Below, in pieces: positions 8,855-50,959 of a stretch of DNA of 51,935 nt. Source of the DNA: a virus (lineage: Duplodnaviria > Caudoviricetes); the IMG/VR virus record IMGVR_UViG_3300017705_000711, positions 1 to 51,935 of that record. One strand, given 5' to 3'. The notes beneath the pieces were generated by a model. The model did no database searches and was not told the DNA's origin. It worked only from the letters and a program-made list of their open reading frames with translations. The translations under genes and the position numbers were made by a program. Each line of letters starts with the position of its first letter. The first letter of the stretch is position 1.

Positions 8855-9181
8855 ATGAAAGAAAAGATAATCATTAATCCTGAAAACACAAAGTGTAAAA
8901 TAGATAACACTGGAAGACGCATGAAAATTTATATTAAACTAAACAAAGAAGAGACCGCCGGTTGGCAAAACATTAAAAAAGGCTTTGAGGGCTTTCCCGG
9001 AACTGAGGACGAGCTTGTAAAGATGATGTTTTTCCGAGGCGTGAATGCCTTCATGGATGACCTTAAAAATCAAGTGGACAACTTGTCCGATGATGAAAAG
9101 GAAAAAATCCTAGAAGAAGTTGAAGCTGAGAAAAACTCTAAGGTTTCCGAAACGGAAGCGGCTGATGAGACAAATAGTTAA
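8855..9181 (+). CDS. Hypothetical protein
   Basis: 108-aa ORF with acidic tail. Confidence 0.75.
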   Translation: MKEKIIINPENTKCKIDNTGRRMKIYIKLNKEETAGWQNIKKGFEGFPGTEDELVKMMFFRGVNAFMDDLKNQVDNLSDDEKEKILEEVEAEKNSKVSETEAADETNS

Positions 9182-25467: not shown

Positions 25468-25471
25468 AAAG

Positions 25472-27513: not shown

Positions 27514-28367
27514 AAGTTTTAATCATTCAAGAGAACGGTAGGCATGAAAAGAATAAACATCTTCGGGAGTGCAACTCTATGCAAAGGGCGTTTGCCTCCG
27601 AAGGTGTTGAATGTGATGTTTGGGGTTTAGGGCATGAAACTCCCGACCCTGATTTTGATTCATATGATTTGATTATTAACTTAGAAAACTATGATGAGTC
27701 CGGATGGGTTCCTGATTTGTCTGAGTTTAGAAGCCCTGTTAAATTTCTCTGGGCTATAGACGCGCATTTCAGAGGCACAGCAGTTTACGAAAGAGAGTTC
27801 AATAGAGGAGAGTACGACTTAATACTTCAAGCAACTAATTCTTTCGTTGACGACAATTCTATTTGGATGCCAAACGCCTACGATGACGAGTATTTAACTC
27901 CCGGAGATTCAGAAGATAAAACATACGATGTAGGTTTTTGTGGAAATATTCTAAACAGAGGTTCATTACTTAACAGCACAGACTCCATGTTTGGGTTGAA
28001 AAAAGATATTTTTGTTATAGGGCAAGATATGGTGGATGCGATTAGGTCTTACAAGGTTCACATAAACGCAAATATATCTCAGGATATGAACTATAGAAAT
28101 TTCGAAACTATCGGCTGCGGTACTATACTAGCAGCACCCAACACAACCGACCAGTATGATTTACTTGGTTTTAAAGACAATGTAAATTGTATATTATTTA
28201 AAAATATGGAAGAGTTTGAAGAAAAAGTGAGAAAGGTCCTGGAGGATGATTCCTACAGGGATAAAATGAGTAAAGAGGCGAAAAAGCTTGCCAAAAAACA
28301 CACATACAAAGAAAGAGCAAAAACTATTATAGCACAATGGAAAACAATAAAGAAAGAACAACAGTAG
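27510..28367 (+). CDS. GT-B glycosyltransferase (CgeB-like)
   Basis: YDVGFCG...R, NYRNFETIGCG, HTYKERA. Confidence 0.82.
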   Translation: MKVLIIQENGRHEKNKHLRECNSMQRAFASEGVECDVWGLGHETPDPDFDSYDLIINLENYDESGWVPDLSEFRSPVKFLWAIDAHFRGTAVYEREFNRGEYDLILQATNSFVDDNSIWMPNAYDDEYLTPGDSEDKTYDVGFCGNILNRGSLLNSTDSMFGLKKDIFVIGQDMVDAIRSYKVHINANISQDMNYRNFETIGCGTILAAPNTTDQYDLLGFKDNVNCILFKNMEEFEEKVRKVLEDDSYRDKMSKEAKKLAKKHTYKERAKTIIAQWKTIKKEQQ

Positions 28368-31901: not shown

Positions 31902-32240
31902 ATGAAATTCACTCCACCATCAGATACCGCAGAAAAGCATGGAAGAACTACTTCTATGAAAGCAAAGGTTAAATCCTTTCCGTTTATTCGCGTAGCGCTG
32001 CAACAGGCTGACTTTGGAACTATTTTCACAACTCCTCAATCCGACGATATTTACGTTATTACCCATGGTTCATGGGGAGATAAGTCCGCAAATAAAGTCG
32101 TTAAAAGCTTCAAACCTGACACACCCTTTGCAGATATCAAAGGGTATTCAAAAAGAACAAAAGTTAAACATGGGCGTTCAAGCACTAAGCATAAAGGAGA
32201 AGAATCTGGCGGCTACAGTGTAAAAACAAATAAAGATTAA
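31902..32240 (+). CDS. Hypothetical basic protein
   Basis: 112-aa ORF with GAGG SD and upstream CTATATA. Confidence 0.7.
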   Translation: MKFTPPSDTAEKHGRTTSMKAKVKSFPFIRVALQQADFGTIFTTPQSDDIYVITHGSWGDKSANKVVKSFKPDTPFADIKGYSKRTKVKHGRSSTKHKGEESGGYSVKTNKD

Positions 32241-32563
32241 TGTATACTCCAAAGACTTCCTATTTCTCATCAACGAGGGTTCAGAAATTAGCCAAAGAGG
32301 TTATTTCTGACTGTCGATGTGATAGAGACAGGGCGTTAGAGGCGTTTGATTACTTTAAAACTATGGTTGAGTCTAATCCGGATGACCACAAAGCGAAGAC
32401 GGAAATGAATAAAGCTTTACAACTATCACAGGATTCTAACGATAAAGTAGTTAGGATTTTAGATATGATGTTGAAGATGACTCAAACAGAAATGAAAACT
32501 GCTCCCCCAAAAAGCAATAATGATGAACTAACTTTTGCATCTTTACGAAATGGTAAAAAATAA
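32240..32563 (+). CDS. Hypothetical helical protein
   Basis: 107-aa ORF, TAATG coupling to upstream gene. Confidence 0.7.
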   Translation: MYTPKTSYFSSTRVQKLAKEVISDCRCDRDRALEAFDYFKTMVESNPDDHKAKTEMNKALQLSQDSNDKVVRILDMMLKMTQTEMKTAPPKSNNDELTFASLRNGKK

Positions 32564-33840: not shown

Positions 33841-34572
33841 ATGAAAGGTATTGTACTCGCTGGAGGGTTAGGTTCGCGGCTAAAACCGCTGACTGACGCT
33901 ACCAATAAACATTTACTCCCTATCTACGATAGACCAATGGTGTATTACCCCATACAGACATTGGTGGATGCCGGCGTTACCGACATTATGGTCGTTACTG
34001 GCGGACCACACGCAGGGGATTTTATTAGAGTATTAAAAAATGGAGAAACGTTCGGATTACAAAAACTACACTACGCGTACCAAGAAGGGGAAGGGGGAAT
34101 CGCCCAAGCCCTCAGCATGGCGGAGACTTTTGTCGGAGGGGATAACTGTGTTGTCGTATTGGGGGATAATATTATTGCTGACGATATACGTTGCCATGTT
34201 AGGAGTTTTGATTCTATCGGTGGTTGCATGGTCTTCTCTAAAGAGGTGGGTGACCCGGAAAGATTCGGCGTGATTGAGTGGGAAGAAGGTCCTGAAGCGA
34301 AGGTTAAGGATATTATAGAAAAACCTACGTCTCCCCCTTCTAACGATGCTGTAATTGGTTTGTATATGTATGATAGTACCGTGTTCTCCAAAATTAAATC
34401 ACTTTCTCCTTCCGCGAGAGGAGAACTAGAAGTTACAGACCTAAACAGGATGTACCTTAAAGAAAAACAACTTGAAGTTCGTAGAATAACCGGCACATGG
34501 TTAGACTGTGGAACTCCTGATTCTCTGGCAGAAGCCACTTCTAAATTTTATAATGACTCAAAAGGACTCTAA
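33841..34572 (+). CDS. rmlA: Glucose-1-phosphate thymidylyltransferase
   Basis: GIVLAGGLGSRL.PLT..NKHLLPIYD, LGDN, EKP, SARGELEVTD, WLDCGT. Confidence 0.95.
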   Translation: MKGIVLAGGLGSRLKPLTDATNKHLLPIYDRPMVYYPIQTLVDAGVTDIMVVTGGPHAGDFIRVLKNGETFGLQKLHYAYQEGEGGIAQALSMAETFVGGDNCVVVLGDNIIADDIRCHVRSFDSIGGCMVFSKEVGDPERFGVIEWEEGPEAKVKDIIEKPTSPPSNDAVIGLYMYDSTVFSKIKSLSPSARGELEVTDLNRMYLKEKQLEVRRITGTWLDCGTPDSLAEATSKFYNDSKGL

Positions 34573-35515
34573 ATTAATTGTTGTTACAGGTGGGTGGGGT
34601 TTTATCGGCTCCCGGTTTGTAAAAGCGATACTCGAAAACACATCTTACAACGTAAAAGTTATTGATAAACTAACGTATGCCGGGAAGCGTACGAGAGTTT
34701 ACAACCATATAGACCCGAAATACAGGGTTCGCGTGGAGGAGGTTCGGAAAGATATTACTGACGTATCGTATGTTGATGTTTTAAACGCCGACTATATTGT
34801 AAACTTTGCCGCTGAGAGCCATGTAGATAACTCTATTAAAGACGGCAAGCCTTTTATTCGTAGTAATATTGAAGGGGTTTTTAACCTGCTAGAACAAGCG
34901 AGGAAGCTCCCTAAGCTAAAGAAGTTTGTTCAAATATCAACAGACGAAGTGTACGGGGATATGGCTGACCTAAGAGGGCGACAGGCTGCAGACGAATCCT
35001 TTAAACTTCGCCCGAGTTCTTATTACTCCGCGTCCAAAGCCTCTGCTGACCTCTTAGTAGAATCAGCGGCTAGAACGTTCGGGGTGCCTTACATTATCAC
35101 CAGAAGCTGTAATAATTTTGGACCAAACCAAGACCCTGAGAAGCTTATCCCTAAAATCTTTAAATCAATTAAGCAAGGTGAACAAGTCCCTATCTATGGA
35201 GATGGTCTCCAATCACGGGAATGGATTCACGTTGACGACAACGCCCAGGTTATTTTAGAACTAACGCTTTCCTTTGCGAAAAATGAGATTTTTAATATAG
35301 GTTCCGGGTTTCATTATAAAAATATTGAGATTGTAAACTACATAGGGGAAGCTTTAGGTAAGAAAGTTTTAAGGGAACGCGTTGATGACCGCTTAGGGCA
35401 TGATAAAGTATACCGTATAAATAATAGGAAGGTTGAACGATTGTTAGGAGAGAAAGTTTACCAAACCTTAGAAGGGTTTCTAAAGGACGAGGTTAATGAA
35501 TCTATCACAATGTAG
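34553..35515 (+). CDS. rmlB: dTDP-glucose 4,6-dehydratase
   Basis: TGGWGFIGS, DKLTYAG, FAAESHVDNSI, STDEVYG, YSASKA, EKLIP. Confidence 0.95.
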   Translation: MTQKDSKLIVVTGGWGFIGSRFVKAILENTSYNVKVIDKLTYAGKRTRVYNHIDPKYRVRVEEVRKDITDVSYVDVLNADYIVNFAAESHVDNSIKDGKPFIRSNIEGVFNLLEQARKLPKLKKFVQISTDEVYGDMADLRGRQAADESFKLRPSSYYSASKASADLLVESAARTFGVPYIITRSCNNFGPNQDPEKLIPKIFKSIKQGEQVPIYGDGLQSREWIHVDDNAQVILELTLSFAKNEIFNIGSGFHYKNIEIVNYIGEALGKKVLRERVDDRLGHDKVYRINNRKVERLLGEKVYQTLEGFLKDEVNESITM

Positions 35516-36224
35516 AGTCGTTGTTACTGGAGGAACGGGAACGTTGGGGTCTGCGTTAGTCCCTCTGTTGGAAGAAAAAGGAGCTTTCGTTATTGCTCCA
35601 ACCCGAAAAGAGATGAATATAACCGATGGACATTCCGTAGGCTCATTTTTTTCAAAAGGAAGAGGCTCTGGATGTGATATTGTTATACATTGCGCCGCTT
35701 ACACTAATGTTCCCGACGCGCAGTTGCCTGCGAACCACCGTAAAGTTATTAATACCAATATCTTAGGTACTGGGTATATTTCATCCTGGGCTAAGCAAAA
35801 CCACTTTAAAATGGCTTATATATCCACAGATTACGTTTACGAAGGGGTTAAAGGAAATTATGAAATAACGGATATCCCAAAACCGTTTTGCTTCTATGGT
35901 TATAGTAAGTTAGCAGGAGAAAGTTTCGTTCCAAGTAATGGTTTAGTGCTTAGAACTTCATTTTTGCCACGTGGGTACTGGGGGGAAGATGCTTTAAAAA
36001 TGGTGTTTTCGGACGTTTATACCTCCAAAGATTGGGTAGATGTAATTGCAGCAAAGATTATTGAAAGGCTTGGTGACCGGGGAGTATATACTATTGGAAC
36101 CGAGAGAAAGCTTCTAAAAGACCTCGCAATCCAGGAATACCCAGAAGTAGAAGAGGTAGAGGTGGGCACATTAAATTTTGTGTATAAATATCCAAAAGAT
36201 TCTTCTATGAGGGTAGATACTTAA
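35496..36224 (+). CDS. rmlD: dTDP-4-dehydrorhamnose reductase-like
   Basis: TGGTGTLG, HCAAYT, ISTDYVY, YGYSKLAGE, LRTS. Confidence 0.88.
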   Translation: MNLSQCRVVVTGGTGTLGSALVPLLEEKGAFVIAPTRKEMNITDGHSVGSFFSKGRGSGCDIVIHCAAYTNVPDAQLPANHRKVINTNILGTGYISSWAKQNHFKMAYISTDYVYEGVKGNYEITDIPKPFCFYGYSKLAGESFVPSNGLVLRTSFLPRGYWGEDALKMVFSDVYTSKDWVDVIAAKIIERLGDRGVYTIGTERKLLKDLAIQEYPEVEEVEVGTLNFVYKYPKDSSMRVDT

Positions 36225-38532: not shown

Positions 38533-39474
38533 ATGGAATATCAAGACAGCCCGTTTATTAGATATCTTGTACCTGTAGTGAAAGAGTCAAAACTCATGAG
38601 CTCTCGGACTAATAGGAAGTTTTTTGATGCGATGTGGAATAATTTAAATGAGGTAGGTCTTCCTTGTGGAGGTATAGAACTAACCCTTAAAAAGGAAGGA
38701 TTCCACTTAGACCAAGCAACTGTATGTCTAGGTAAAGTGGACACACAGGTTGCTGTCGCCGAACATGGTTTTAAAAAAGTCAAACCTAAGGACGAGGTAT
38801 GGCACAGCCATTCCCCTGGACTATTTAAAAAGTTTGTGGGGCTTGCGATAGACCGTTCTAAGCGGGCGTATACAAAAGAGCAGGTTGAAGGGGATATTAA
38901 TTCACTTACATATGTATCTAAAAAAGTCAAAACTCAGGCTATAAAGTTTGCGAATAAAGTTATTGAAAACGGACACAAGGTTTTATGTTTAGGAATGCCT
39001 GTATCTTGGAACCCTTTTGGGAACAAGATTAAAGTTTACTGTCTTCCAAAAACACACAAAAAAGGCGCAGTTTACTATTCTGATGTAGTATCCTTCGCAA
39101 AAGAAATGGGCTGTTCCGAGAACTTGGAAATACTTTCTGATTTGTATGATTTAGAAGATGCGCAAACCCGTTATATATCTTTCGATATAGACAATAAAGG
39201 GGTAAAGAACAAAATTGGAGTAGAGGTCTGCTCCGAACACACGGATTTCTGTTTTAGCATTGTAGACTGGCTGAAAGTCAAAAACTTCACTAATGAATCC
39301 CACTCTATAAAATCCCCTAACGGGTTTCACCACTTAAAACTCACATTCTCCAAGGGGAGAATAACACCCAAACTGTATTTCAGCATAGGATATGAAAGAT
39401 TTAAAGCACAACAACCCAAAGTCGTTAACAGCAACACAGGTCGTCCTGTCAACATCTCAAAAAGTCAAAACTAA
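38533..39474 (+). CDS. Hypothetical protein (313 aa)
   Basis: Long ORF; C-terminal HHLKLTF...PKLYF. Confidence 0.75.
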   Translation: MEYQDSPFIRYLVPVVKESKLMSSRTNRKFFDAMWNNLNEVGLPCGGIELTLKKEGFHLDQATVCLGKVDTQVAVAEHGFKKVKPKDEVWHSHSPGLFKKFVGLAIDRSKRAYTKEQVEGDINSLTYVSKKVKTQAIKFANKVIENGHKVLCLGMPVSWNPFGNKIKVYCLPKTHKKGAVYYSDVVSFAKEMGCSENLEILSDLYDLEDAQTRYISFDIDNKGVKNKIGVEVCSEHTDFCFSIVDWLKVKNFTNESHSIKSPNGFHHLKLTFSKGRITPKLYFSIGYERFKAQQPKVVNSNTGRPVNISKSQN

Positions 39475-40095
39475 TTTAACCCTAGTCGGCTACCCTAATT
39501 TAAAAGTAATAACCCACAAAGGGACGACTTATTATTATAGTTTTGAGTCTGATGATTATGGTAGACCTATATACATTGAAAAGTCAAATGTCACAGACCC
39601 CGTTACACCAAATCTACTTTACGCCTAACACGATTAGGGAAGATGAAGAGTCAAAAGTCAAAACTCCAATCGAACGTGCGGAGGCTTTGTCTAAACGCCT
39701 GAAAAAATTGGCTAATACGGAAATGTCAAAAGGTATTTACTTAGGTCCAAAAGTCAAAAACTCTGTTAAGGTCGCAGGTATTCTGGCGAGACTAAAAGTA
39801 AGACAAAAACACCAAGACTGGAAAAGTCAAAAGGTTAATGAAACCTTTACGACCAAAAAAGATGCTTGGCGAAAAGGGATTATAACTAACATACCTGATA
39901 AAAAGACAATGTATTTTACGGGTAAACAAACCTCTTACGATACGGCTGTTGTTTTCCGACAAGCCATAAAAGTCAAATAATGTCGTATTTTCAAGGTAAC
40001 CTTTTCCAACTCAAGTTATCCAAAAAAGAACTTCTTCCTTTTCTGTCTATGTTACCCATAGTTGAACTTGGGGCTAACGAGGTAGAAAAGTCAAA
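38775..40095 (+). repeat. Cluster 1 of polar motif AAAAGTCAAA (9 exact copies)
   Basis: Starts 38775, 38922, 39460, 39579, 39653, 39749, 39822, 39968, 40086. Confidence 0.85.
39588..39980 (+). CDS. Hypothetical basic protein
   Basis: ORF 39543-39980; ATG 39588 chosen, start uncertain. Confidence 0.6.
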   Translation: MSQTPLHQIYFTPNTIREDEESKVKTPIERAEALSKRLKKLANTEMSKGIYLGPKVKNSVKVAGILARLKVRQKHQDWKSQKVNETFTTKKDAWRKGIITNIPDKKTMYFTGKQTSYDTAVVFRQAIKVK

Positions 40096-40396
40096 AGCGA
40101 TGAAAGTTATAGGCTTGGACAATGAACTTGTTTTTGACTTATTGAAACACCATGACCTCGATTTGCTAAACGCTTATCGTATTGTGTTATTTGTGTTAAG
40201 CCTAAAAGAGTTTCCTTCTGACCTCAATCCGTTTCTACGAAGAATAAAGTTCCTCGACAAGGGATTTGAGACACGCTTTAAGAGAATGCTTGGACGCACA
40301 TCTGTTTCTGAGAATAATATTTCTGTGAAAGAACTTAATAGTTGGTGGGAATTAAAATCCAAATACGATGATGGTGGTAAACCAATAACAGAATAG
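39980..40396 (+). CDS. Hypothetical protein
   Basis: 138 aa, TAATG coupling. Confidence 0.7.
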   Translation: MSYFQGNLFQLKLSKKELLPFLSMLPIVELGANEVEKSKAMKVIGLDNELVFDLLKHHDLDLLNAYRIVLFVLSLKEFPSDLNPFLRRIKFLDKGFETRFKRMLGRTSVSENNISVKELNSWWELKSKYDDGGKPITE

Positions 40397-40436
40397 GTAT
40401 AACCCAAATCATGTTAATCGTAGCACTACACGCCGT

Positions 40437-40451
40437 CTGCCATTTTGGCAG
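40437..40451 (+). promoter_or_regulatory. Palindromic operator-like site CTGCCA-TTT-TGGCAG
   Basis: Reverse complement of four copies at 50.1-51.7 kb. Confidence 0.7.
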
Positions 40452-40616
40452 GGTTGAGTTCCGCTATGCGAAGAAAGGCGAAACCCAATAATCCCTACAT
40501 TCTATTATAGAAAAGGTTTAAGGAATAACGACCTATTTTCGCCTATACAAGTTATCGTTATTCTGTAATTCAAGGAACGGTAAGGAGTTATGTCCAAAAT
40601 ATTTCATAAATAGTTG

Positions 40617-40645
40617 TTCAAAACTTGCCCCCCCATGACTATAAT
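40617..40645 (+). promoter_or_regulatory. Sigma70-like promoter
   Basis: TTCAAA-17 nt-TATAAT. Confidence 0.55.
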
Positions 40646-40648
40646 AAT

Positions 40649-40736
40649 ATGTAGGGAATGGAAGTAAGACGCTGAACCATAATAATAACCTAAGTGAGAT
40701 ACTTGAAAAATACTTTGGTGCGTTCCTTCCCTACAT
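40649..40736 (+). ncRNA. Structured 5' leader or small RNA
   Basis: atgtagggaa(t)ggaa pairs with ttccttccctacat; inner gacgc..acca / tggtgcgtt. Confidence 0.5.
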
Positions 40737-40771
40737 TAACCCACTCTAATAACAATAATAGAAAAAACCAA

Positions 40772-41059
40772 ATGCGAAGCACCTATATTTCAGAACGAAA
40801 GTTCACTTATGATAATGGTAAGAAAACAGAACGCCATGTTCTCTCTACCGCCCACAACCAAAATACTCTGCGTGGATTCGATGTGAGTAACCTTACAAAA
40901 GGACAAATCACTCGTATCCGTAATGCTTGGGAGAAAATCCAAAACCAAAATTGGAAGTTGGAAACCAAAGAACGCAAAGTTATGGACGCTGTTGGAAGTC
41001 CTGCGAAAAGTAATTTCCGCACCTTCAAGACGGCAAGTATTAAATCATTTGATATGTAA
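40772..41059 (+). CDS. Small protein, WYL/Sm-like fold suspected
   Basis: FTY...ERHV...LRGFD...FRTFK..SI pattern. Confidence 0.55.
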   Translation: MRSTYISERKFTYDNGKKTERHVLSTAHNQNTLRGFDVSNLTKGQITRIRNAWEKIQNQNWKLETKERKVMDAVGSPAKSNFRTFKTASIKSFDM

Positions 41060-41096
41060 TTATAGATATATTTAATGTAAAAACTTAAAGTTTTTT

Positions 41097-41132
41097 AGCC
41101 TTCTAGCGATTATGTTGGAAGGCTTTTTTTTT
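41097..41132 (+). terminator. Intrinsic terminator
   Basis: agccttctagc / gttggaaggct stem followed by a T run. Confidence 0.88.
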
Positions 41133-41154
41133 GCCCATTTTGTTCCTTTTTCGC

Positions 41155-41183
41155 TTGACATCGAGGGGGGGATATGTTATAAT
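41155..41183 (+). promoter_or_regulatory. Consensus sigma70 early promoter
   Basis: TTGACA-17 nt-TATAAT with extended TG. Confidence 0.92.
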
Positions 41184-41247
41184 ATACGCCTAATAGGGCA
41201 AGAACTACCTTACCAAATTAACCATAAACTCGTTGGAGCAAAACCAA

Positions 41248-42057
41248 ATGTCTAATAACTTTGTAATTGACAATACAAAAAAAGAAGTCTTGACCACTCT
41301 TATCAAAGGTGGCAAATCATGTTTAATCACAGGCGCAACAGGTGCGGGTAAAACCACTTTCTGTTACTCACTTGCTGATGAACTTAATATGAATCCTGTT
41401 GTTATCAACTGTGGTTCAACCCAAGATGCTAGAACAAGTTTACTTGGGTATTTTACTTTGGAGGACGGAAACACAAAGTTTCAACAATCTGATTTTCTAA
41501 GTGCTATTCAAAAACCGAATACACTTATTATCCTTGATGAATTATCAAGAGCAAGTGATGATGCTTACAACATCATCTTTCCTATTTTAGATTTCCGCCG
41601 TAACATTCGTGTTGATGAAGTTGCGGAAGGGCATGAAATAGAAGTTGATGGCTCAGTTAGGTTTGTCGCTACCGCAAATGTTGGTATTGAATACTCGGCT
41701 ACTAGAACTATTGACCGAGCGTTACAAGACCGTTTTATGGTTTTCAACTTGCCATACTTAAACAAAAAACAATTAAAGTCTTACATTAGGAAGCAACACG
41801 ATAAGGAAACTGCGGAAGCAGTATCTCCGTTGCTTGATGTTTACTCTTACACCCACAAAATGTTTGCTGACGGCAAAATTGGAAGTCGTTTGTCCACGAG
41901 GGCTGTTCTTGATGTTTTACCTTTGGTAAAAACTTTCTCGACGAAAGACATTATGGAAACTGTTATCTTATCTCAGTTTTCACAAGATTCATCTAGCATT
42001 ATCAACGATGCTAATATCATTCGTGAATATGCCGATAGCATTGGGATTTATAACTAA
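41248..42057 (+). CDS. MoxR-type AAA+ ATPase (CbbQ/NorQ/CobS-like)
   Basis: GATGAGKT, ILDELSRA, ATAN.G.EY, DRALQDRF, STR. Confidence 0.9.
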   Translation: MSNNFVIDNTKKEVLTTLIKGGKSCLITGATGAGKTTFCYSLADELNMNPVVINCGSTQDARTSLLGYFTLEDGNTKFQQSDFLSAIQKPNTLIILDELSRASDDAYNIIFPILDFRRNIRVDEVAEGHEIEVDGSVRFVATANVGIEYSATRTIDRALQDRFMVFNLPYLNKKQLKSYIRKQHDKETAEAVSPLLDVYSYTHKMFADGKIGSRLSTRAVLDVLPLVKTFSTKDIMETVILSQFSQDSSSIINDANIIREYADSIGIYN

Positions 42058-43268
42058 TGAGCAAGAAAGTTTTTCAGCCTAACGAAGATGTTAAGATTGA
42101 CGCTGAGTATATGGAACGATGGCTTGGTGGGGTAAAGATTCATTCTTTATCCCCTAAGACCCTGTTTGATTTACAAACTTTGTTATCACACTACAGGGAT
42201 ATTATTGTTCCTATGGACAATGTAAAAGTTTCGTTTCCTGTAGAGGGTTTTGATACTGCCTGTGCTTCTGTTGATGAAAAAAAGATTTTCATTCCAACTC
42301 AAGTGTTACAGGAGGGTAAAATAGATGAAACCATTGGTTTGGTTATTCACGAATTAAACCATATCAAACACTCGGAAAAGGAATCGACTTTGTTAAAGGT
42401 CTGCGCTAACTTTATTATGGTGTGTTTAGATTCTATCTTTGTGGAAACTAGCGTAGAAGGAGAATATCTTTCATTGAAAGAAATAGTGTATCAAGGAGGT
42501 TTTAATTTTGCGCATATTCAGCAAGGTTATCCCCAAACACCTATGGAAGAATTTTTCTCAATGTGTATTAAAGATGTTATGCTTTTGTTAAACTCGGTTG
42601 AGGATATTCGGATTGACGCTATATGCCCACATAACTTGAAAAAATACATAGACAAGATAGACACTAACTCGTTTGAGAATTTCAAAGAACATTATGAAAA
42701 TGGAGCGTTAGACGATGAATCTTTAATGAACATCGTTTACCGTATGCTGTATCATCATAAAGGTTTTATTCACGACCCTACTATCTCCAAGCGTTATGGG
42801 GATACAGAATACATCAAAAGCAGTTTACCTAAAACTTATGTTCCTACTTTGTTAAAAAGTTTTAAGAATGAAATTAAAGAACATTGCGAGGAGATTTACA
42901 ATAGTTTTAGTCCATCTCAACCGCAAGGAAAATCTCAAACTGATGAATACCTAACGCTTATGGAAACATCATCAAATGAAGAAAGTTTCAACAAAATGTT
43001 GGGAGAAGATAAATCTTTTTCTGATGAATGTGTTGAGGGTGTTGAGTTCGAGGATTCTGAGTTAGACCCTAACTCAAACTTGGAAAACCGAAAAACTGAA
43101 TACCAAAAACAAGAAGAAGATAACCGAGAACTGGCAGAAATGCCTTCTTACATGGAAGCATCTATAAATGTTTTCAAGAATGTCGATGTTGTAGATTGTT
43201 CAGAACAATTTACAGACAGATACGGCGATACTAACCAAATAAATTACAAAACACTACTAATAGGATAA
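42057..43268 (+). CDS. HEXXH metallopeptidase-like protein (CobT N-terminal-like)
   Basis: IHELNHIKHS and NSVEDIRID; acidic C-terminal region. Confidence 0.75.
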   Translation: MSKKVFQPNEDVKIDAEYMERWLGGVKIHSLSPKTLFDLQTLLSHYRDIIVPMDNVKVSFPVEGFDTACASVDEKKIFIPTQVLQEGKIDETIGLVIHELNHIKHSEKESTLLKVCANFIMVCLDSIFVETSVEGEYLSLKEIVYQGGFNFAHIQQGYPQTPMEEFFSMCIKDVMLLLNSVEDIRIDAICPHNLKKYIDKIDTNSFENFKEHYENGALDDESLMNIVYRMLYHHKGFIHDPTISKRYGDTEYIKSSLPKTYVPTLLKSFKNEIKEHCEEIYNSFSPSQPQGKSQTDEYLTLMETSSNEESFNKMLGEDKSFSDECVEGVEFEDSELDPNSNLENRKTEYQKQEEDNRELAEMPSYMEASINVFKNVDVVDCSEQFTDRYGDTNQINYKTLLIG

Positions 43269-43975
43269 TGCCTCAAACCACAACTAAAAAACTACACCTT
43301 TACCAACCAAAATCACCACTTGCTTACGCTGACACCATGAACGAGGAATTGCTTTCTGAGTTTGATTCTACGGACATCGAAGCATACGAAAAAGAAGAAG
43401 TCGTTATGTTCGGTTTCCGTAAGGAAGATATTACTTCCACTCAAACTGTAATTGAAGAAGTTTCACAAGGATTAAAATTTTTGTTCGGCGACCAATCTAA
43501 ACAATTAAAATACATTGAGAGAGCCTTAACTAAAGGCGAAACTATTTGTGATTCACATTACGATAAGTTTGTGAGAGCAGAAAGGGTTGAAAAACTAATA
43601 GATAGTGCTAAGTTAAAACACAAAGGACAGGCAACCCAAGTTGGTTTGTCTGAAACTAATGTTGAGGAACTTAACTCTGCTATCGCATACCTTACCGAAA
43701 AAGGTTTTACATTTGGGCGAGATTTTACTGCCCATAATGCTATTGACATATCAAAGGCGCACTACCTTGAACAATGCCATCTCGATGAGGATTTAGTAAG
43801 CCTATCAAACGATGTTGCGGATTGTAAAGAATGCGAGTTGGAATATGAAAAAGGCAATGTAAACTTATCAGCATACTCTTTAAGTTGTCGCTGTTACGAG
43901 GATAAGCCTCTTGATATTAACTTTAAGGATAACGCACCTCAGTTTTATGTATATGGAGAAACGCCTAATGCCTAA
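43268..43975 (+). CDS. Hypothetical protein
   Basis: 235 aa; CKEC and CRC near C-terminus. Confidence 0.75.
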   Translation: MPQTTTKKLHLYQPKSPLAYADTMNEELLSEFDSTDIEAYEKEEVVMFGFRKEDITSTQTVIEEVSQGLKFLFGDQSKQLKYIERALTKGETICDSHYDKFVRAERVEKLIDSAKLKHKGQATQVGLSETNVEELNSAIAYLTEKGFTFGRDFTAHNAIDISKAHYLEQCHLDEDLVSLSNDVADCKECELEYEKGNVNLSAYSLSCRCYEDKPLDINFKDNAPQFYVYGETPNA

Positions 43976-44861
43976 ACCGAGAGTAACGATAGACAAAGAA
44001 GTGATGTTTGACGAGGATAAGTTTTCTCGTCGTTTTGATGTGTTAGGTTTTCGTGATAACTTATACCACAAGTTTTCACGCAACATAATGTTATTACTTG
44101 ATAGCAAAAAACCTAGAACTACCTTTACAAATAAGGGTAGACTAGAACCTCGCAGAGCATACCGTTATAACTTTTCTGACCAACTGTTTAAGCAAAACCA
44201 ATCTACCCCAACAGGAGATACTACCATTCTATTTTTGATTGACGGTAGTGGTAGTATGGAAAGTTCCGATAGAATTGAAAAATGTAGTGCTATTTGCTCT
44301 GCGTTTGGAAAAGCAATAAACGATGTTACTAAAAACCAAATTAAGTTTGAGTGTTTTGTAAAACACGCACCTCCTACGGACGATGTTGAATACGGAGGTA
44401 GGTTTGTTACCCTTACAAAAATACTTTCCAACACTAAGAGTTCTATAAAAGATTTCGATAAAATTTTAAGGCTTACCACCCTTAGCCCTTTGAAAGTAAC
44501 TGACACAAATCGACCTATTGGTAGTTATACTGCTGAGTTTGCTGTGTTACCTGCTTTGCGGAAATACATGGCAAAAAATCTTACGACTAAAAATGCGATT
44601 GTAGTAAACCTTACTGATGGTGGGGCTTACTGCGAATTGGGAAAAGATGGCACTTACAGTTTTCGTGATAAGGAAAACGGACAGATGAGAATTAAATACT
44701 TATCTCAAGTTCCTCATGTAACTGTTATGGTAGGAAATGATTTGGACGAAAAGGAATTAGCCGAAGTGTATGGCAATAATGTAGTAGAGTGCGCAGATGA
44801 TAATTTTGTGCCTAATCTTTTTAAGATGTTTATGGGATTTTTGGAGGATACTTATGAGTAA
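43968..44861 (+). CDS. von Willebrand factor A domain protein (CobT C-terminal-like)
   Basis: GRL..RR...LFKQ, LIDGSGSM MIDAS, LTDG. Confidence 0.88.
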   Translation: MPKPRVTIDKEVMFDEDKFSRRFDVLGFRDNLYHKFSRNIMLLLDSKKPRTTFTNKGRLEPRRAYRYNFSDQLFKQNQSTPTGDTTILFLIDGSGSMESSDRIEKCSAICSAFGKAINDVTKNQIKFECFVKHAPPTDDVEYGGRFVTLTKILSNTKSSIKDFDKILRLTTLSPLKVTDTNRPIGSYTAEFAVLPALRKYMAKNLTTKNAIVVNLTDGGAYCELGKDGTYSFRDKENGQMRIKYLSQVPHVTVMVGNDLDEKELAEVYGNNVVECADDNFVPNLFKMFMGFLEDTYE

Positions 44862-45426
44862 TAAACTAACAGCAAAACAATGGAATACTCTTTGGGAAAA
44901 ATACAAAAACTTAATGTATAGTATTTCTTACCGAATAGGTGGCGATAGGATTTGTAATAGTCTTGAGGATAGCGTTCAAGAGTTATCCATTACTGCTATG
45001 GACGCTTGCCTAGCATACGAAAAGAAAACAGGAAAAAAGTTTGATGAATACATAAATACTACCCCATTTAACAAATACATTAAAACTTGTTTATGGAATA
45101 GGAAAAACAACAACGGCTTGAAGATTGAAAAGAAAAGAGCAATCAACAGTCATTGTAGTTTAGATGAACAAATAGCGGAAACAAATATAAATCTCAATAC
45201 TGATGTTTGCCCTGTTTCTGCTTTGGTAGATGATGTATGTCTTACAGACGAACTGATTTCTGTAAGAGATGTAATCCTTACCGACACAAACATGATTAAG
45301 CCTAACGGCAGAATCAACATCTCAAGATTATCAAAATATCTTGGGAAAAGTAAACCAAATACACAAAAGGCACTCGCCGAACTAAAAGAAAAATACAAAG
45401 ATTTTGAGGAAATGAATAATGTCTAA
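44854..45426 (+). CDS. Phage sigma70/ECF-like sigma factor
   Basis: KYKNLMYSISYR, EDSVQE, FNKYIKTCLWNR region-2 pattern; C-terminal HTH-like ISRLSKYLGKS. Confidence 0.65.
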   Translation: MSNKLTAKQWNTLWEKYKNLMYSISYRIGGDRICNSLEDSVQELSITAMDACLAYEKKTGKKFDEYINTTPFNKYIKTCLWNRKNNNGLKIEKKRAINSHCSLDEQIAETNINLNTDVCPVSALVDDVCLTDELISVRDVILTDTNMIKPNGRINISRLSKYLGKSKPNTQKALAELKEKYKDFEEMNNV

Positions 45427-46171
45427 GTTTAGAAAAAATAAAACAACACCAAAGATTGAGGTCTGCGGAAAAACACCTGTCTCTCCTGTTTTCGCAGGAT
45501 TCAAAGATGTTATGGAGAATTTAACATACGGCATACGAAACAATAGTGCTATTTTGGATTCTGAATTGCGAGTGTTAATTGAAAACTACGAAAAGTTCCG
45601 CTACTTAAATAGTGGCGAAGCATTTTTTAGCGTAACCAAAGAGCATGAACCAAAATCGAATTTCGTCGAGCAACCACATAAAAGTGGTTTAATTGTTTCT
45701 GTTGGTATGTTGCGTTTACTGATAACTACTATCCTCCCTGTAATGTTAAAAGACCGTTATACTCATACTCATAGGGGCGATAAGCGTAAAAAGGAAACTA
45801 AAAGTATGGATTGGGTAAAACCAGATTTCAAAAGTATGAAGCATTGGTTCAAGTTGTTGGATACAATTTGGTTTGTGAAAGAAAGCCCTTGCGATATTAT
45901 TGAAGCAACAGGACGAATAAAAGTATTCAACCAATGTAACACAAAAACAAGATACGGTTATCGTATGAGTGGTATGCCAAGCCCCTTAACTAACATTTTC
46001 ATGTCGAAAAGATATGAACCAACATCATGGTATAATACTTGTAGAAAGTGTTATTACAATGACCATGCCGACCATGTTTGGAGGGCAAATTACAAAAATG
46101 ATTACGCACCTCTAAGAGACTACGGAATGTCTTATGACACCATTTTGTCTGAAACAGCAATGTCGCTATAA
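45419..46171 (+). CDS. Hypothetical protein
   Basis: 250-aa ORF with GAGG SD. Confidence 0.75.
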   Translation: MSKFRKNKTTPKIEVCGKTPVSPVFAGFKDVMENLTYGIRNNSAILDSELRVLIENYEKFRYLNSGEAFFSVTKEHEPKSNFVEQPHKSGLIVSVGMLRLLITTILPVMLKDRYTHTHRGDKRKKETKSMDWVKPDFKSMKHWFKLLDTIWFVKESPCDIIEATGRIKVFNQCNTKTRYGYRMSGMPSPLTNIFMSKRYEPTSWYNTCRKCYYNDHADHVWRANYKNDYAPLRDYGMSYDTILSETAMSL

Positions 46172-46190
46172 CCTTAACCCTAATAATAAA

Positions 46191-46649
46191 ATGAAATTAT
46201 CAAAGAATAAAATAACCTTTTTAGCAATAGCATCTGTGGTATTGACTATCTCCTGTGTTATGTCGTGCGTAACCCCTACGCCAAAAACAAAAACGCCTAA
46301 CGCTTTACTGTTAGAGTGGAATGAAATTTACGAAACCCTCGATACCACGATTGACGAATCAGTTGATATGGAAGTTTGGGGGTTGCGTGAGAAACTAGAA
46401 CCTCATGGTATTACTGTGTTTCGTGTAGACCCAAATAATGTTGAACACCAACGCCGATACCAAAGACATCTTTTGGGTAACTTAAACCCAAGAATGGAAA
46501 TGACGGATTGGCAAATACATAAAGCGCACTCGTATCCTGTAAATGGAACAATGTATGATGAGAGTTGCCCTCATTGTAGAAAAGAAATGGTGGAATATAT
46601 AAATGTAGGAATACAAAGATACAAAGCCGAAGTGGAGATGGGTGTATGA
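46191..46649 (+). CDS. Exported/lipoprotein-like hypothetical protein
   Basis: Signal-like N-terminus ending ISC/MSC; HKAH and CPHC. Confidence 0.65.
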   Translation: MKLSKNKITFLAIASVVLTISCVMSCVTPTPKTKTPNALLLEWNEIYETLDTTIDESVDMEVWGLREKLEPHGITVFRVDPNNVEHQRRYQRHLLGNLNPRMEMTDWQIHKAHSYPVNGTMYDESCPHCRKEMVEYINVGIQRYKAEVEMGV

Positions 46650-46819
46650 GAAAAACAAGTAAATACAGAATGTTAAAACGCTTTAGCCACAAATCAAAGG
46701 CTGAAGCGTTTATGGAAAAACTAGGCAGGGATAACTTGTCTATATTTACAAGAAAGTTTAAGGACAAGGATAAGACTCGTGTCTATGTAAGAGAACTTGT
46801 AAGGAAGGGAAGTAAATGA
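46646..46819 (+). CDS. 57-aa basic protein (not in the ORF track)
   Basis: MRKTSKYRMLKRFSHK...; ATGA overlaps at both ends. Confidence 0.65.
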   Translation: MRKTSKYRMLKRFSHKSKAEAFMEKLGRDNLSIFTRKFKDKDKTRVYVRELVRKGSK

Positions 46820-47037
46820 AGTTTTTAGAAAATTATTTTAGAAAAGGGTTTTACACAATGGCTTTCCTTAGAACGCTTGCGTGTATTATCCTTTTGATAC
46901 TTGCGTTATGCTCATGCGGAACTATAGAATATGCTTACTCAGAAGCATCTTGGGTATCACATCAAATTCACTTTCAAGAGAACATGGATATGCCTAACTG
47001 CCATTGGTGTTTTGAATACAACAGACAAATACCTTAA
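46816..47037 (+). CDS. Small lipoprotein-like protein
   Basis: Hydrophobic stretch ending LCSC; HQIH and CHWC. Confidence 0.6.
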   Translation: MKFLENYFRKGFYTMAFLRTLACIILLILALCSCGTIEYAYSEASWVSHQIHFQENMDMPNCHWCFEYNRQIP

Positions 47038-47039
47038 TT

Positions 47040-47531
47040 ATGCCAAATCATTGTAACACAACTTTACATCTTGACGGAGAAGAAATCCACCGCCAAGAGT
47101 TTGTAGATAAGAATAAAGGTTTTTCATGTTGGGATACTAAGCAAGAGAATGAATATAAAGATTTATCCTTTCACGCACAAGTGCCTATGCCTAAAAAACA
47201 TATCAACAGCCATAAGAAAAAAACATCAAATAGTGATTGGTATGGTTGGGCTAATAAACAATGGGGAACTAAATGGGAAGCCTACGAGGTTTGTCTTGAC
47301 CATCATAAAAACTACACTACATATAACTTTGATACTGCTTGGTGTATTCCCGAAGCATGGTTGAAAAAGGTTTCTAAGAAGTTTCCAAATATAAAGTTTA
47401 ATGTTGAGTGGGCTGAAGAAGGAGGTTGTGGTGGCAGATTTATGTTACACAATGGATTCTTTTTTCATGTCCATGAGTTTAACGAAAAAGAATGGAAAGA
47501 GTTTATGGGGTATGATGATGACGAAGAATAA
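47040..47531 (+). CDS. DUF1281/YubB ferredoxin-like domain protein
   Basis: MPNHC, WYGWANKQWGTKW, FDTAW..P. Confidence 0.85.
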   Translation: MPNHCNTTLHLDGEEIHRQEFVDKNKGFSCWDTKQENEYKDLSFHAQVPMPKKHINSHKKKTSNSDWYGWANKQWGTKWEAYEVCLDHHKNYTTYNFDTAWCIPEAWLKKVSKKFPNIKFNVEWAEEGGCGGRFMLHNGFFFHVHEFNEKEWKEFMGYDDDEE

Positions 47532-47676
47532 AAAGAAACCAAAAGCAAAATTAACCAAACTTCCTCCATGTATTATATGTGGGGGAACAGGTATTCACGA
47601 GGAAAAAATTAAAGGTTACAGACGATACAAATGTTGGTCGTGTAACGGAACAAAAACACAACAACTAAACACATGA
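47512..47676 (+). CDS. Small DnaJ-type zinc-finger protein
   Basis: CIICGGTG...CWSCNGT. Confidence 0.65.
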   Translation: MMMTKNKKKPKAKLTKLPPCIICGGTGIHEEKIKGYRRYKCWSCNGTKTQQLNT

Positions 47677-47996
47677 AAAAAATAAACACACTAACACTAA
47701 TATCGGTTATCCTGTTATACACAACAACCGTAATGTTTGCTTTTAGTATCCCTAGAGCAACATACCCAAAGAACTTTATACCTTTTTGGTCGCAACCAAG
47801 AGGTGGACACGAAACAACATTGTTGAATACAGCACAGATTGTTCGTATCGTTCCTGTTTTCGACCCAAATGAAGAAGAACCCAATCATAAAGATATTCAA
47901 CACTTAGAAGTGTATATGACTGATGGAAAGGTTCTAACAGTAAACGAGAATTTCGCAGAGTTTTACCAAAGAGTAAGAGTATCACAGGCAAAGTAA
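47673..47996 (+). CDS. Hypothetical membrane-anchored protein
   Basis: N-terminal hydrophobic helix; ATGA coupling. Confidence 0.7.
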   Translation: MKKINTLTLISVILLYTTTVMFAFSIPRATYPKNFIPFWSQPRGGHETTLLNTAQIVRIVPVFDPNEEEPNHKDIQHLEVYMTDGKVLTVNENFAEFYQRVRVSQAK

Positions 47997-48301
47997 TGAA
48001 AGATGATTACAAAGTAACACCAATACCCAAAGAACTATGGGGAGCATTAAATCTTGTTACTCACGAAGTAAGAATGGCATTGGCTATAACTCGTTCAAGA
48101 GATACTCGTTTAGCCAAAGCAGTAGCATTACTTGATGAATATGCTTCTTGCTTTGGTGCTGATGGTAGAGTTTCACAAAGAGGAGAAATACCACAATGTT
48201 GGAACGCAGAAACTATTTTCACACCACACAGAGAGTTTGGTAAAGAAGAAGTTTGTAGAGAACAATTAACATTTAATTTTGAGAACAATGAAACTGAGTA
48301 A
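47996..48301 (+). CDS. Hypothetical protein
   Basis: 101 aa, TAATG coupling. Confidence 0.7.
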   Translation: MKDDYKVTPIPKELWGALNLVTHEVRMALAITRSRDTRLAKAVALLDEYASCFGADGRVSQRGEIPQCWNAETIFTPHREFGKEEVCREQLTFNFENNETE

Positions 48302-48581
48302 AAGAGAAGCAGACGCAAAAATATTAAACACCCCATTGAAGTGGGGAAAATATGCTGTCATTAAATGGTATGCCAAATCATCACTCGCTTATCGGTCAGC
48401 CGACTTTGCTATTATGAACACAGCAAGCGGAGGTTATATGTATTCAGAAATTTGGTCAGCGAAAGCCTTTGGCATAATAAACAAAGGACTCGAAACGCCA
48501 AACAAAAACAATGATTGGTGTTATAGTGCTGTAGTAAATGTACAAACAGGCAAAATAGAGTGGAGAAACTACGCTGATTAA
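48288..48581 (+). CDS. Hypothetical protein
   Basis: 97 aa from ATG 48288. Confidence 0.7.
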   Translation: MKLSKREADAKILNTPLKWGKYAVIKWYAKSSLAYRSADFAIMNTASGGYMYSEIWSAKAFGIINKGLETPNKNNDWCYSAVVNVQTGKIEWRNYAD

Positions 48582-48595
48582 GACTATAATAAAGT

Positions 48596-48937
48596 ATGAG
48601 TAATACACTAGAACACAAAATTACAGAAGATGGAACACATGAGTTCGATTTTCAAAACCTTAAAATCCATCTAACAGATATTAGCGGTGCTAATATTGGT
48701 TCAGAAGGAGGACTGCGCTTTACGATGAGCCTAAAAGAATCTATGAAAGGTAAAGAAGTTTTAACCAAAGTAGATGAGTTCATCGTATATCCCGATGCTA
48801 TAGATTGGAAAAACGGCGGTAAGATGAAGCCAGAGTTTGAAAAAAGAATTAAGGAAGCACATGAATCTCGTGGAGAATCCTTAGCAGACGAAGCAGACCC
48901 TCAAAACGAAGAAAAAGAACAATCAGTAGATGAGTAA
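48596..48937 (+). CDS. Hypothetical protein
   Basis: 113 aa; TATAAT 5 nt before ATG. Confidence 0.72.
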   Translation: MSNTLEHKITEDGTHEFDFQNLKIHLTDISGANIGSEGGLRFTMSLKESMKGKEVLTKVDEFIVYPDAIDWKNGGKMKPEFEKRIKEAHESRGESLADEADPQNEEKEQSVDE

Positions 48938-49154
48938 AGAAACATATATCGTAAACAAAAGATGCTTTGCCAATGAGTTCGTATCTGTTAAAGCAAACTC
49001 TAAAGCAGACGCAATAGCAAAGGCAAAAGAAAACGAGGGGAATACCCTGTATGGACATCTTGAGTATAACGGTTATCTTCCATCTAATATGTGGTCTGTC
49101 GAAAAGATGAAAGAGACAAACGAGCATTATCGTGAAAACCCATCAAAAAATTGA
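48930..49154 (+). CDS. Hypothetical protein
   Basis: 74 aa; VKANSKADAIAKA. Confidence 0.65.
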   Translation: MSKETYIVNKRCFANEFVSVKANSKADAIAKAKENEGNTLYGHLEYNGYLPSNMWSVEKMKETNEHYRENPSKN

Positions 49155-49378
49155 AGGAGAAACAAAAACCCATGGACACAGAAAACAATACAAGTGGTAG
49201 TGAAGGAGGACACCCATACTTTACTACAGCACATAAACAATCACTAAGACTAAGACTAATGAATAAGTATAACCTATGGTCTACAATACTAAACTATAAG
49301 TTAGGTAGCCCTCTATTATCAGACCTCTATAGTCTAATCAAATGTGGTGTTATTATTAAGATTTTATTCTTTTTATAA
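49151..49378 (+). CDS. Hypothetical protein with hydrophobic C-terminus
   Basis: Last ORF of the + strand run; start uncertain. Confidence 0.5.
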   Translation: MKEKQKPMDTENNTSGSEGGHPYFTTAHKQSLRLRLMNKYNLWSTILNYKLGSPLLSDLYSLIKCGVIIKILFFL

Positions 49379-49725
49379 CCCAAAACGGATTAAAAGAAGA
49401 TTAAAACTCGGCACATACTTGGTAAAACTAATATAATTTGGTTGCTCACATAGACTTGATGCTCGTGTTCCTGTTCCAAATATGTGCCGTTTCTTTTATT
49501 CTTTTTTGTATAAACTAATACAATCTTGTTATAACTTGATGGTTTTTTTATTTCAGTTAGGGGGCTTGCCCAAAACATTAAAAAAAACAATAGCCATAAC
49601 GCCCCCCATTTAATCCGATTTCATGTGATTTCTTAACCATTAAAAGTCAAAAACTATTTAATATATTCTATTAAACTAAGAAAAGTCAAAACTATATCCC
49701 ATTTAATTTTTTTATTAAATACACG

Positions 49726-49765
49726 AACCTCGCACGGTAGCAATACTATGCGAGGTTATTTTTTT
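49726..49765 (+). terminator. Strong intrinsic terminator in the convergence zone
   Basis: aacctcgca..ggta-GCAA-tact..tgcgaggtt then a T run. Confidence 0.85.
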
Positions 49766-49976
49766 GTTCTAAGAAAAGTCAAAAGTAATATAGCACTAAC
49801 ACACACATAAGGAAAAGTCAAAAACACAATAAAGTTGGCACGTTCAAGAGCCACGACCGCTAACCTGAGATATCTATTGATTATATTATGTAATTTGTTC
49901 CGCTGTGTTAAACCATGTTATACCTATTTTACTTTAACTAAATCCCATAAGGATACAATCCCCATAAGAGCCTAAT

Positions 49977-50005
49977 ATTATACCACAGCCTAAGCATATA
50001 GTCAA
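49977..50005 (-). promoter_or_regulatory. Sigma70 promoter
   Basis: Minus strand TTGACT-17 nt-TATAAT with extended TG. Confidence 0.75.
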
Positions 50006-50144
50006 GTGTTATGTCCTTTATATTAAAGCACTTACGCGCGCCCGTTCTTTTTATTCTTTTTTACTCACAACTTTTCGCATTTAAAACCTGCGGAGCAAAG
50101 GACTTAGGGGCGTGGCGGTGCACTCGGTCTGCCAAAATGGCATA

Positions 50145-50378
50145 CTAAGCCCCTTCTTCTAAGTAAAGAGGCTTAATGTTATCAAAAGTTATTCGCGTAA
50201 GCGTCCTGTCCTTATTCGCAACCCATTTCCCTTTACAATGGGAACAAGTTACACTTGTGGTAGAACGCTCATCAAGGTGTAGAGAGAAAGTATCACACTC
50301 TACACACTTTAGACAGCCGAGAGAGAGGCTTTCTAATAACCTCTCCCTCTTGCTTTTAGATATGCCGTATTTACTCAC
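50145..50378 (-). CDS. Small zinc-ribbon protein
   Basis: CVEC...CSHC. Confidence 0.65.
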   Translation of the reverse strand: MSKYGISKSKRERLLESLSLGCLKCVECDTFSLHLDERSTTSVTCSHCKGKWVANKDRTLTRITFDNIKPLYLEEGA

Positions 50379-50754
50379 TTAATTCTTGCTCAAGTAAAGC
50401 GTCAATATCAATATCTTGGGAAGCAAGAATCTCTTGAGCCTTTTCCATACGGTCAGCCTTTAGAGATGCTATTTCCTGCTCTAAACTTGCTTGGGTTTCG
50501 TTAGCATTAGCCAAGTTTACATGGCATTCTTCAATTTGTGCTTGAAGTTTAGCGATACGAGCGTCCAAGCCGTTATCTGAATTAGTCCAACGACGAACTT
50601 TGGTCAATTCTTTCTGAACATTCTTAATAGAAAAGTCAAAAGCCTTAATCTCTTTGTGGTCTGATACTACCTCACGAGCGACACGCTCTTTGAGTTTAGA
50701 AATCTTCTTCTGAGCGTCTTGAAGTAGTTGAAATGCGGAACGATGTTTTGCCAT
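50371..50754 (-). CDS. Coiled-coil hypothetical protein
   Basis: 127 aa heptad pattern; AAGGAG SD; own promoter. Confidence 0.8.
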   Translation of the reverse strand: MAKHRSAFQLLQDAQKKISKLKERVAREVVSDHKEIKAFDFSIKNVQKELTKVRRWTNSDNGLDARIAKLQAQIEECHVNLANANETQASLEQEIASLKADRMEKAQEILASQDIDIDALLEQELSE

Positions 50755-50802
50755 GTGTATAATCTCCTTGATTTGGGTAATGGACTTGATTTGTGAATGT
50801 AT

Positions 50803-50831
50803 ATTATACCGTCGCCTATAGCGTTTGTCAA
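50803..50831 (-). promoter_or_regulatory. Consensus sigma70 early promoter
   Basis: TTGACA-17 nt-TATAAT with upstream T tract. Confidence 0.9.
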
Positions 50832-50959
50832 GTAAAAAAAGTCAAAAACATTGATTTTTCTAAAAGTATTTAAAAAATAATACCCCAGCCCCAGCCGCAG
50901 CCGCCAGGGAAAAGTCAAAAGTCAATACTGCCAAAATGGCAGCCGCGGTGCAGGCTCTG

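Follow-up and report, generated by a model that had tools for sequence, protein, structure and literature searches.

The packaging site (pac) of phage P22 lies within the gene of its small terminase (TerS), and the TerS of T4-type phages is a plain helical hairpin (PMC9611059). Two putative pac sites have been placed in T4 genes 16 and 19 (PMC9611059, PMC9958956). According to these two papers, T4 has no demonstrated pac site, and the model of twin-site synapsis is based on indirect data. The TerS site of phage HK97 spans 15 bases, is asymmetric, and contains an A-tract and a single G that is critical (PMC11331095). How terminases of the T4 type choose their own DNA is an open question. Here we consider a stretch of 51,935 nucleotides, positions 1 to 51,935 of the IMG/VR virus record IMGVR_UViG_3300017705_000711, called the window below, in which copies of a polar word, AAAAGTCAAA, form two arrays on either side of an early operon. 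The phage family to which the window belongs offers defined sequences and two candidate proteins for binding and swap experiments on this question.

The window holds 16 exact copies of AAAAGTCAAA, all on the plus strand, when 0.59 are expected by chance and the maximum in 100 shuffles is 3. Nine of them (38775, 38922, 39460, 39579, 39653, 39749, 39822, 39968 and 40086) make up cluster 1 and seven (49642, 49681, 49774, 49813, 50631, 50837 and 50910) make up cluster 2, which consists of two sub-clusters, 49642-49823 (2a) and 50631-50926 (2b). The number of copies and their place in two zones were given in a preliminary description of the window and are confirmed, together with its near-copies at 38582, 39273, 39721 and 50917, to which another at 39646 is added; it noticed none at 1-38.5 kb or 40.2-49.6 kb, and the rest of the window indeed has no exact copy. 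The imperfect reverse copy that it placed at 40131 exists, at 40133-40142. Outside the zones there are four copies with one mismatch (607, 14225, 25704 and 32159), which is the level of chance. The 7-base core AAGTCAA occurs 18 times on the plus strand and once on the minus strand, every time within 38.6-40.1 kb or 49.6-50.9 kb, and tandem steps of 7 bases (AAAAGTC) are seen at 39646/39653 and 50910/50917, with triples in the related locus L011. The counts are not those of a word spread evenly over both strands at a frequency set by composition, and chance or composition as the origin of the arrays is ruled out by the shuffle counts, the heptamer statistics and the codon shuffles. As had been claimed earlier, the copies fall in different reading frames: those in rightward open reading frames (ORFs) of cluster 1 in 11 loci are split 14/13/11 over the three frames, and other copies are non-coding, which rules out an amino-acid repeat as the origin of the word. 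Cluster 1 sits at the end of a long rightward unit, left of a consensus sigma-70 promoter, and cluster 2b and the first leftward gene, promoter included, overlap. The arrangement is as follows.

38582..40096, plus strand: cluster 1, nine exact and four near copies of AAAAGTCAAA(A), within and between ORFs 38533-39474, 39543-39980 and 39980-40396.
40133..40142, minus strand: lone imperfect reverse copy, absent in the related locus L107.
40438..40450, no strand assigned: TGCCA-NNN-TGGCA palindrome right of cluster 1, with more copies at 50130, 50929, 51265 and 51662.
40503..40510, minus strand: leftward CTATAATA, pointed at cluster 1; no long ORF on the minus strand lies immediately behind this site.
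41155..41183, plus strand: rightward promoter of the early operon, consensus sigma-70, 12/12 match.
41233..49378, plus strand: early operon between the clusters, without AAGTCAA on either strand.
49642..49823, plus strand: cluster 2a, four exact copies; the DNA here is AT-rich and non-coding, and the rightward and leftward early units meet in it.
49977..50005, minus strand: leftward sigma-70 promoter (TTGACT-17-TATAAT) facing cluster 2a, 11/12 match, kept in L107.
50631..50926, plus strand: cluster 2b, copies in the minus-strand ORF 50371-50754 and upstream of its promoter (50803-50831), and the tandem pair 50910/50917.

Conservation was followed in 29 loci anchored on the AAA gene of the early operon, namely the window and 28 relatives with 57-91% identity; L106 and L108-L114 were excluded as weak or too short, and several of the loci kept are near-duplicates. 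When zone 1 is counted as occupied with at least two forward cores and zone 2 with at least three, zone 1 is occupied in 28/28 covering loci (162 forward cores, 1 reverse) and zone 2 in 13/14 (101 forward, 3 reverse), which makes 263 forward and 4 reverse cores in the two zones together. The interval between the zones has no forward core and 4 reverse ones, three of which are the -35 box of the rightward promoter. The first sites of the two zones are 8.4-11.0 kb apart across the loci. Among distant long records, which have no AAA gene, three (G011, G012 and G013) retain a cluster where the rightward early unit ends, G014 has four scattered forward copies, and G015, a record that stops before the zone, has none. 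In fragments from this marine phage group, the word is also a marker of the early region. Each zone has 5-12 dispersed copies over 0.3-1.5 kb, and cluster 1 sits on unrelated genes in different lineages; the L107 orthologue of one such ORF has lost two sites that the window has and gained two others. From this follows that selection acts on the number of sites and on their zone rather than on their exact place. The common consensus is AWAAGTCAAR, flanked by lineage-specific sequence of up to about 15 bases, so that the forms around AAGTCAA include AAAAGTCAAAA, GCTATAAGTCAA, AAAAAGTCAAAGTTT and AAAAGTCAAATTA. A search of viral contigs for relatives of the cluster-1 ORF found none, and no description of the word or of the phage family was found by title or abstract start among the papers listed, supplements and most subscription papers aside.

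Single or paired forward copies are also seen upstream of a uvsX-like gene (oriented positions 6091 in G009, 25243/25280 in G012 and 100581 in G014). The early operon of G011 has another clustered one-strand word, (GGGTGC)TGACCTT, with about 13-15 copies within 2 kb at 97.2-100.5 kb (oriented).

Outside the arrays, the word is avoided when reversed. Outside the masked zones, 806 kb from 12 records contain 4 copies of the reversed core when 58.8 are expected, a 14-fold depletion that ranks 2 among 11,064 heptamers, and the forward core occurs 28 times when 53 are expected. Since TTGACA-N words in the same 806 kb have ratios of observed to expected counts of 0.53-0.77, avoidance of -35 boxes explains this purge only in part. 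A codon-preserving shuffle, proposed as a check in the preliminary description, gives 55 reversed words in rightward genes, where there are 4. To which reference the polarity is fixed depends on the mask. With wide masks, minus-strand genes hold 0 reversed copies against 4.5 expected, which by our own estimate favours a genome-fixed polarity by about 6:1. The wide masks had, however, hidden two reversed copies in minus-strand genes, and with tight masks, in 24 records and loci, a model in which polarity is relative to transcription is ahead by about 4:1, with TTGACTT on the sense strand 6 times against 63 in plus-strand genes and once against 7.0 in minus-strand genes. The latter test, which rests on three sites, is the one we trust more, and the purge may follow the transcribed strand. 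The arrays, then, are real, selected and family-wide. The earlier proposal of a selected, directional signal at the DNA level is borne out by the family-wide position, the site turnover and the purge of the reversed word, and the functions offered with it are only partly supported; its independence of the direction of transcription stands for the clusters but perhaps not for the genome-wide purge.

At the right edge of each array there is a leftward promoter-like site, which the preliminary description had missed. The motif CTATAATA precedes many genes of the window and is, from its position upstream of genes, a putative middle/late promoter. Its leftward copy to the right of cluster 1 is exact in 8/16 loci, against 0.93 expected, and near matches are found at the same place in three more. 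To the right of cluster 2a, the window and several relatives have a leftward sigma-70 match, and the leftward early genes near it each have a sigma-70 match of their own. A -10 box 16-18 bases past TTGACT (5-6 of 6 matches) accompanies 3/109 copies in cluster 1, which equals background, and 15/83 in cluster 2; in the relatives, several 2b copies are, or abut, -35 boxes of leftward promoters. That all copies are sigma-70 promoters is ruled out by the lack of a -10 box in cluster 1.

The window, which has a Gp23 capsid, T4-type tail genes, a split family A polymerase, DnaB, gp32 and UvsX, is part of a marine T4-like myovirus; the sequencing runs that represent it best are labelled marine metagenomes, and no close cultured relative was found in the searches made. 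The early operon holds the AAA ATPase, a sigma-like gene (44797-45426) and small ORFs. Long relatives of 100-130 kb carry a gp17-type large terminase (TerL), a T4-type portal and a gp2 end protector. In one of them, G001, TerL has 31-35% identity to T4-type gp17 across most of its length, the portal belongs to phrog_213, and gp2 is also present. From this kinship to T4-type proteins, the family would package by the headful mode. No small-terminase match adjoins TerL in the genomes of the family.

The preferred reading, to which we give a probability of roughly 0.35, is that the arrays are oriented packaging-start sites for a small terminase. AWAAGTCAAR is likely to be a docking site for a phage-encoded protein. 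That the reader of the word is a protein of the phage and not of the host is probable, since the flanks differ by lineage and there is no Chi-like excess of the word in two candidate host records. To see how such arrays might work, consider a transcript that starts at the facing promoter. It would run into the occupied array and stall, and the stalled zone would mark the place where terminase is loaded, the DNA is cut and packaging proceeds one way along the concatemer. A reversed site elsewhere would be purged because it would stand in the way of RNA polymerase on the main rightward units or send packaging off in the wrong direction. The arrays would then form a pair of pac-like sites, comparable to the putative pair of T4. 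Packaging in T7 is coupled to a paused polymerase. The reading is favoured because a motor of the headful type travels the entire genome in one direction. The position of the P22 site in the gene of TerS, the bare-hairpin form of TerS in T4-type phages, the two putative sites of T4 and the HK97 site, an A-tract with one key G, also speak for it.

Two family-wide proteins were considered as readers of the word:

32240..32563, plus strand: 107-amino-acid protein with a two-helix hairpin; in the relative L090 an extra motif cluster lies on its gene.
8855..9181, plus strand: 108-amino-acid protein with a strand-helix-helix pattern, with a MetJ-like lead only.

The hairpin protein has relatives in 154 clusters. 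Its gene in L090 carries six exact cores in a span of 410 bases, and one of these overlaps the start codon; this third cluster (970-2384) runs on into the gene of a Clp-type ATPase and includes two reverse copies, and the usual zone 1 there has only two cores. The gene of the hairpin protein always adjoins that of the Clp-type ATPase, and the protein may therefore instead be a partner of that enzyme. A weak gp16 profile of 3 sequences found two homologues of the hairpin protein only at E 3-4, and a chain of the T6 TerS complex 9oox came at rank 47 with E 1.3. Identity of the hairpin protein with gp16 is not supported, since profile and fold searches gave no tie. For the 108-amino-acid protein, the MetJ-like lead comes from an atlas score of 0.91 over 137 features; in fold searches for a ribbon-helix-helix likeness, the best Z was 5.3, to an unrelated chain, and MazE came at 3.9, so that the atlas lead is all that is left.

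Several results weigh against packaging-start arrays. No small terminase was found for the family. As for the hairpin protein, only 1/34 loci has a cluster at its gene, the 33 others being without a core within 1.5 kb of it; its hhalign probability against gp16-like proteins is 0.1%; Foldseek gave no hit for it at E<=0.001; and 0/25 distant relatives match a terminase family. T4-like phages are described as without a unique pac site in PMC9611059 and PMC9958956. Packaging takes place late, yet the promoter that faces cluster 2a is of an early type. The contigs show neither a depth step nor a molecule end at the arrays, with contigs as the only material. The purge as counted with tight masks, finally, fits a transcription barrier better.

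In such a barrier, which would work in the manner of a stoperator, a bound phage protein would halt RNA polymerase that meets TTGACTT on the coding strand. We hold this tentatively, close behind packaging start, and it could be a second effect of the same protein. Cluster 2 would shield the rightward early operon, and cluster 1 the long middle/late unit, from the strong leftward early promoters, and the 2b copies would shut the last leftward promoters; the arrays would then insulate the convergent early units from each other in one direction only, in a phage that appears to be lytic. The rarity of TTGACTT on the sense strand in genes of either direction is what such a barrier predicts, and the -35 boxes among the 2b copies are in line with it. 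Cluster 2a is placed where the early units converge, or close to that point, and has up to 16 leftward sigma-70 matches (in G002) to its right, and 23/67 cluster-1 sites are at most 20 bases from a gene end, against a background of 15%. The stoperators of phage L5 are likewise asymmetric 13-mers in promoters and short intergenic spaces and act in one orientation only (PMC9283540). The strand test is unstable, however, the looser mask having favoured genome-fixed polarity; a conserved leftward promoter-like site firing straight at cluster 1 is odd for a pure insulator; scans with Pfam and PHROG of the window and of parts of G001, G006 and G012 found no repressor-like helix-turn-helix (HTH) protein or integrase; and the cluster of G011 is 1.7 kb left of the convergence. 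A pair of promoter-primed replication origins is unlikely. In that case an R-loop would arise from the leftward transcript, and a phage initiator or helicase loader would use the arrays as its iterons. T4 origins do pair promoters with iterons, and cluster 2a combines a promoter with AT-rich non-coding DNA (GC content 0.33 at 49-50 kb), hairpins and direct repeats. Yet lone reversed iterons should be harmless, when the purge is 14-fold, and cluster 1 is dispersed over variable coding DNA. The GC skew at fourfold sites is -0.085 in plus-strand genes of the bulk, -0.072 between the clusters and -0.102 in minus-strand genes of the bulk, with no replication-type skew or strand switch at the arrays, although phage skews can be weak; equal skew in plus- and minus-strand genes means that there is no visible fixed fork direction to explain the polarity. 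The spacings of the sites gave no signal of 10.5-bp helical phasing. In the discovery set (133 spacings) they have a period of 12.2 bp with R 0.345 (p 0.005 for 11 lineages, p 0.028 for an alternative 11), which resembles the 12-bp spacing of protein p6 at phi29 origins (PMC10899789). The clusters taken alone give periods of 13.7 and 6.0, and in three independent sets the 12.2-bp phase is not significant (n 18, p 0.19; n 24, p 0.076; n 21, p 0.17), so that it is a lead only. A fuller version of packaging start, in which each of the twin arrays is activated by a facing non-coding transcript and the reader is a non-HTH small terminase, the 107-amino-acid hairpin, that forms a filament phased by about 12.2 bp and is also a one-way block to RNA polymerase, is decidedly doubtful.

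The arrays might instead delimit a terminal repeat with fixed ends, about 10 kb long, or the early operon might be the first-step DNA of a staged ejection as in T5. Heptamer arrays flank the terminal repeat of T7. The distance of 8.4-11.0 kb between the zones resembles the first-step segment of T5, whose entry halts near 9.6 kb in DNA rich in repeats (bioRxiv 10.1101/866236). A terminal repeat should double the depth between the clusters, and no doubling is seen: run X1 has a contig depth of 29.6 to the left of cluster 1 and of 30.6 in the interval between the clusters, with 24.6 over cluster 1 itself and 32-33 over cluster 2; run X2 has 4.9-5.2 to the left of cluster 1 and 5.7-7.3 in the interval, and runs X3 and X4 have too little depth for this comparison. 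These values are contig depths and not copy numbers, contigs cannot show molecule ends, and the size fraction of the two runs is not known. The flat depth and the T4-type headful genes together disfavour both variants, all 15 long records are classed as linear without end repeats, and we consider a repeat or a staged ejection very unlikely. Of the functions offered in the preliminary description, packaging initiation is thus the likeliest, yet unproven, an origin is possible, and staged ejection is disfavoured. A Chi-like signal for a host nuclease, or a site for another host protein, would account for polar clustering near early genes, but hardly for flanks that are lineage-specific over 10-15 bases, and Chi gives no reason to expect that the reversed word is purged. 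The word has 19 matches against 22 for the control in cell record G016, which is no excess, and 42 against 20 in G017, which is no strong one, 11 of the 42 being on a phage contig; both records hold family contigs and are only candidate hosts. We would be surprised if this explanation turned out to be right.

Some further features lie near the arrays or elsewhere in the genome. TGCCA-NNN-TGGCA palindromes adjoin early promoters and arrays in G003-G006 and G008 and are rare or absent in others. Between 2a and 2b, window positions 50005-50143 form a conserved non-coding block in common with L107, which deep contigs of other strains overlap in run X2; related GTAAGT-type elements come after the cluster in G011 and G012. 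Among known RNA families, only a tRNA-Arg at 38036 passed its threshold. The AAA ATPase and three uncharacterised partner genes (41233-44861), right after the strongest early promoter, are kept in the close family and absent from G011-G014. The family A DNA polymerase (9859-12424) is divided over three ORFs, with a UDG-like and 3'-5' exonuclease part, a middle piece and the polymerase, and is similarly split in all long relatives. Many genes at 21050-30245 and 33841-36224 are of glycosyltransferase, methyltransferase and nucleotide-sugar types (GDP-mannose and dTDP-rhamnose pathways). In the pooled relatives, words of the types GAGCTC, CAGCTG, CTGCAG and ACCWGGT are strongly avoided, which suggests that they are host restriction sites and a possible aid to finding the host. 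Contigs of the family occur in cell records titled Planctomycetales (L257, L259) and Prochlorococcus (L258), both of them only candidate hosts, and contigs C193 and C264 of G016 carry motif clusters.

When the arrays are set beside known systems, each likeness has its limit. With the pac sites of P22 and SPP1 and the twin putative sites of T4 they share an asymmetric site, a headful-type phage and two sites kilobases apart (PMC9611059, PMC9958956), and in one relative, L090, also a cluster on the gene of a small hairpin protein. They differ in that the many copies of each zone are dispersed in variable genes far from terL, with no TerS found, and T4 itself is without a demonstrated pac. The HK97 TerS site is likewise short and asymmetric with an A-tract and a central G (PMC11331095), but it is one 15-bp site beside the cos cut, whereas the present arrays belong to a T4-type phage for which no cut site is known. 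In the p6 complex of phi29, contacts spaced by 12 bp come near the 12.2-bp phase of the discovery set, and p6 acts at origins and in the early-to-late switch (PMC10899789); it binds the minor groove at the genome ends of a protein-primed phage, however, and the phase seen here is unreplicated. The T5 injection stop signal has repeats about 9.6 kb from a landmark with early genes between (bioRxiv 10.1101/866236), and here there is no doubling of contig depth, no DnaA boxes were noted, and the packaging genes are T4-type. The stoperators of cluster A mycobacteriophages (L5 gp71, the TipsytheTRex repressor) are many asymmetric sites of 10-15 bases, dependent on orientation, at gene junctions and promoters, with lineage-specific words (PMC9283540), and multiple asymmetric sites of about 13 bp are indeed present in the arrays. 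The arrays differ from them in being limited to two zones, on one strand whichever way the genes point, and depleted elsewhere; cluster 1 faces antisense and not sense transcription, and no repressor or integrase was found. Without claiming membership in the pac, stoperator, origin, terminal-repeat or Chi family, we conclude that the arrays work like a multi-copy oriented recognition site.

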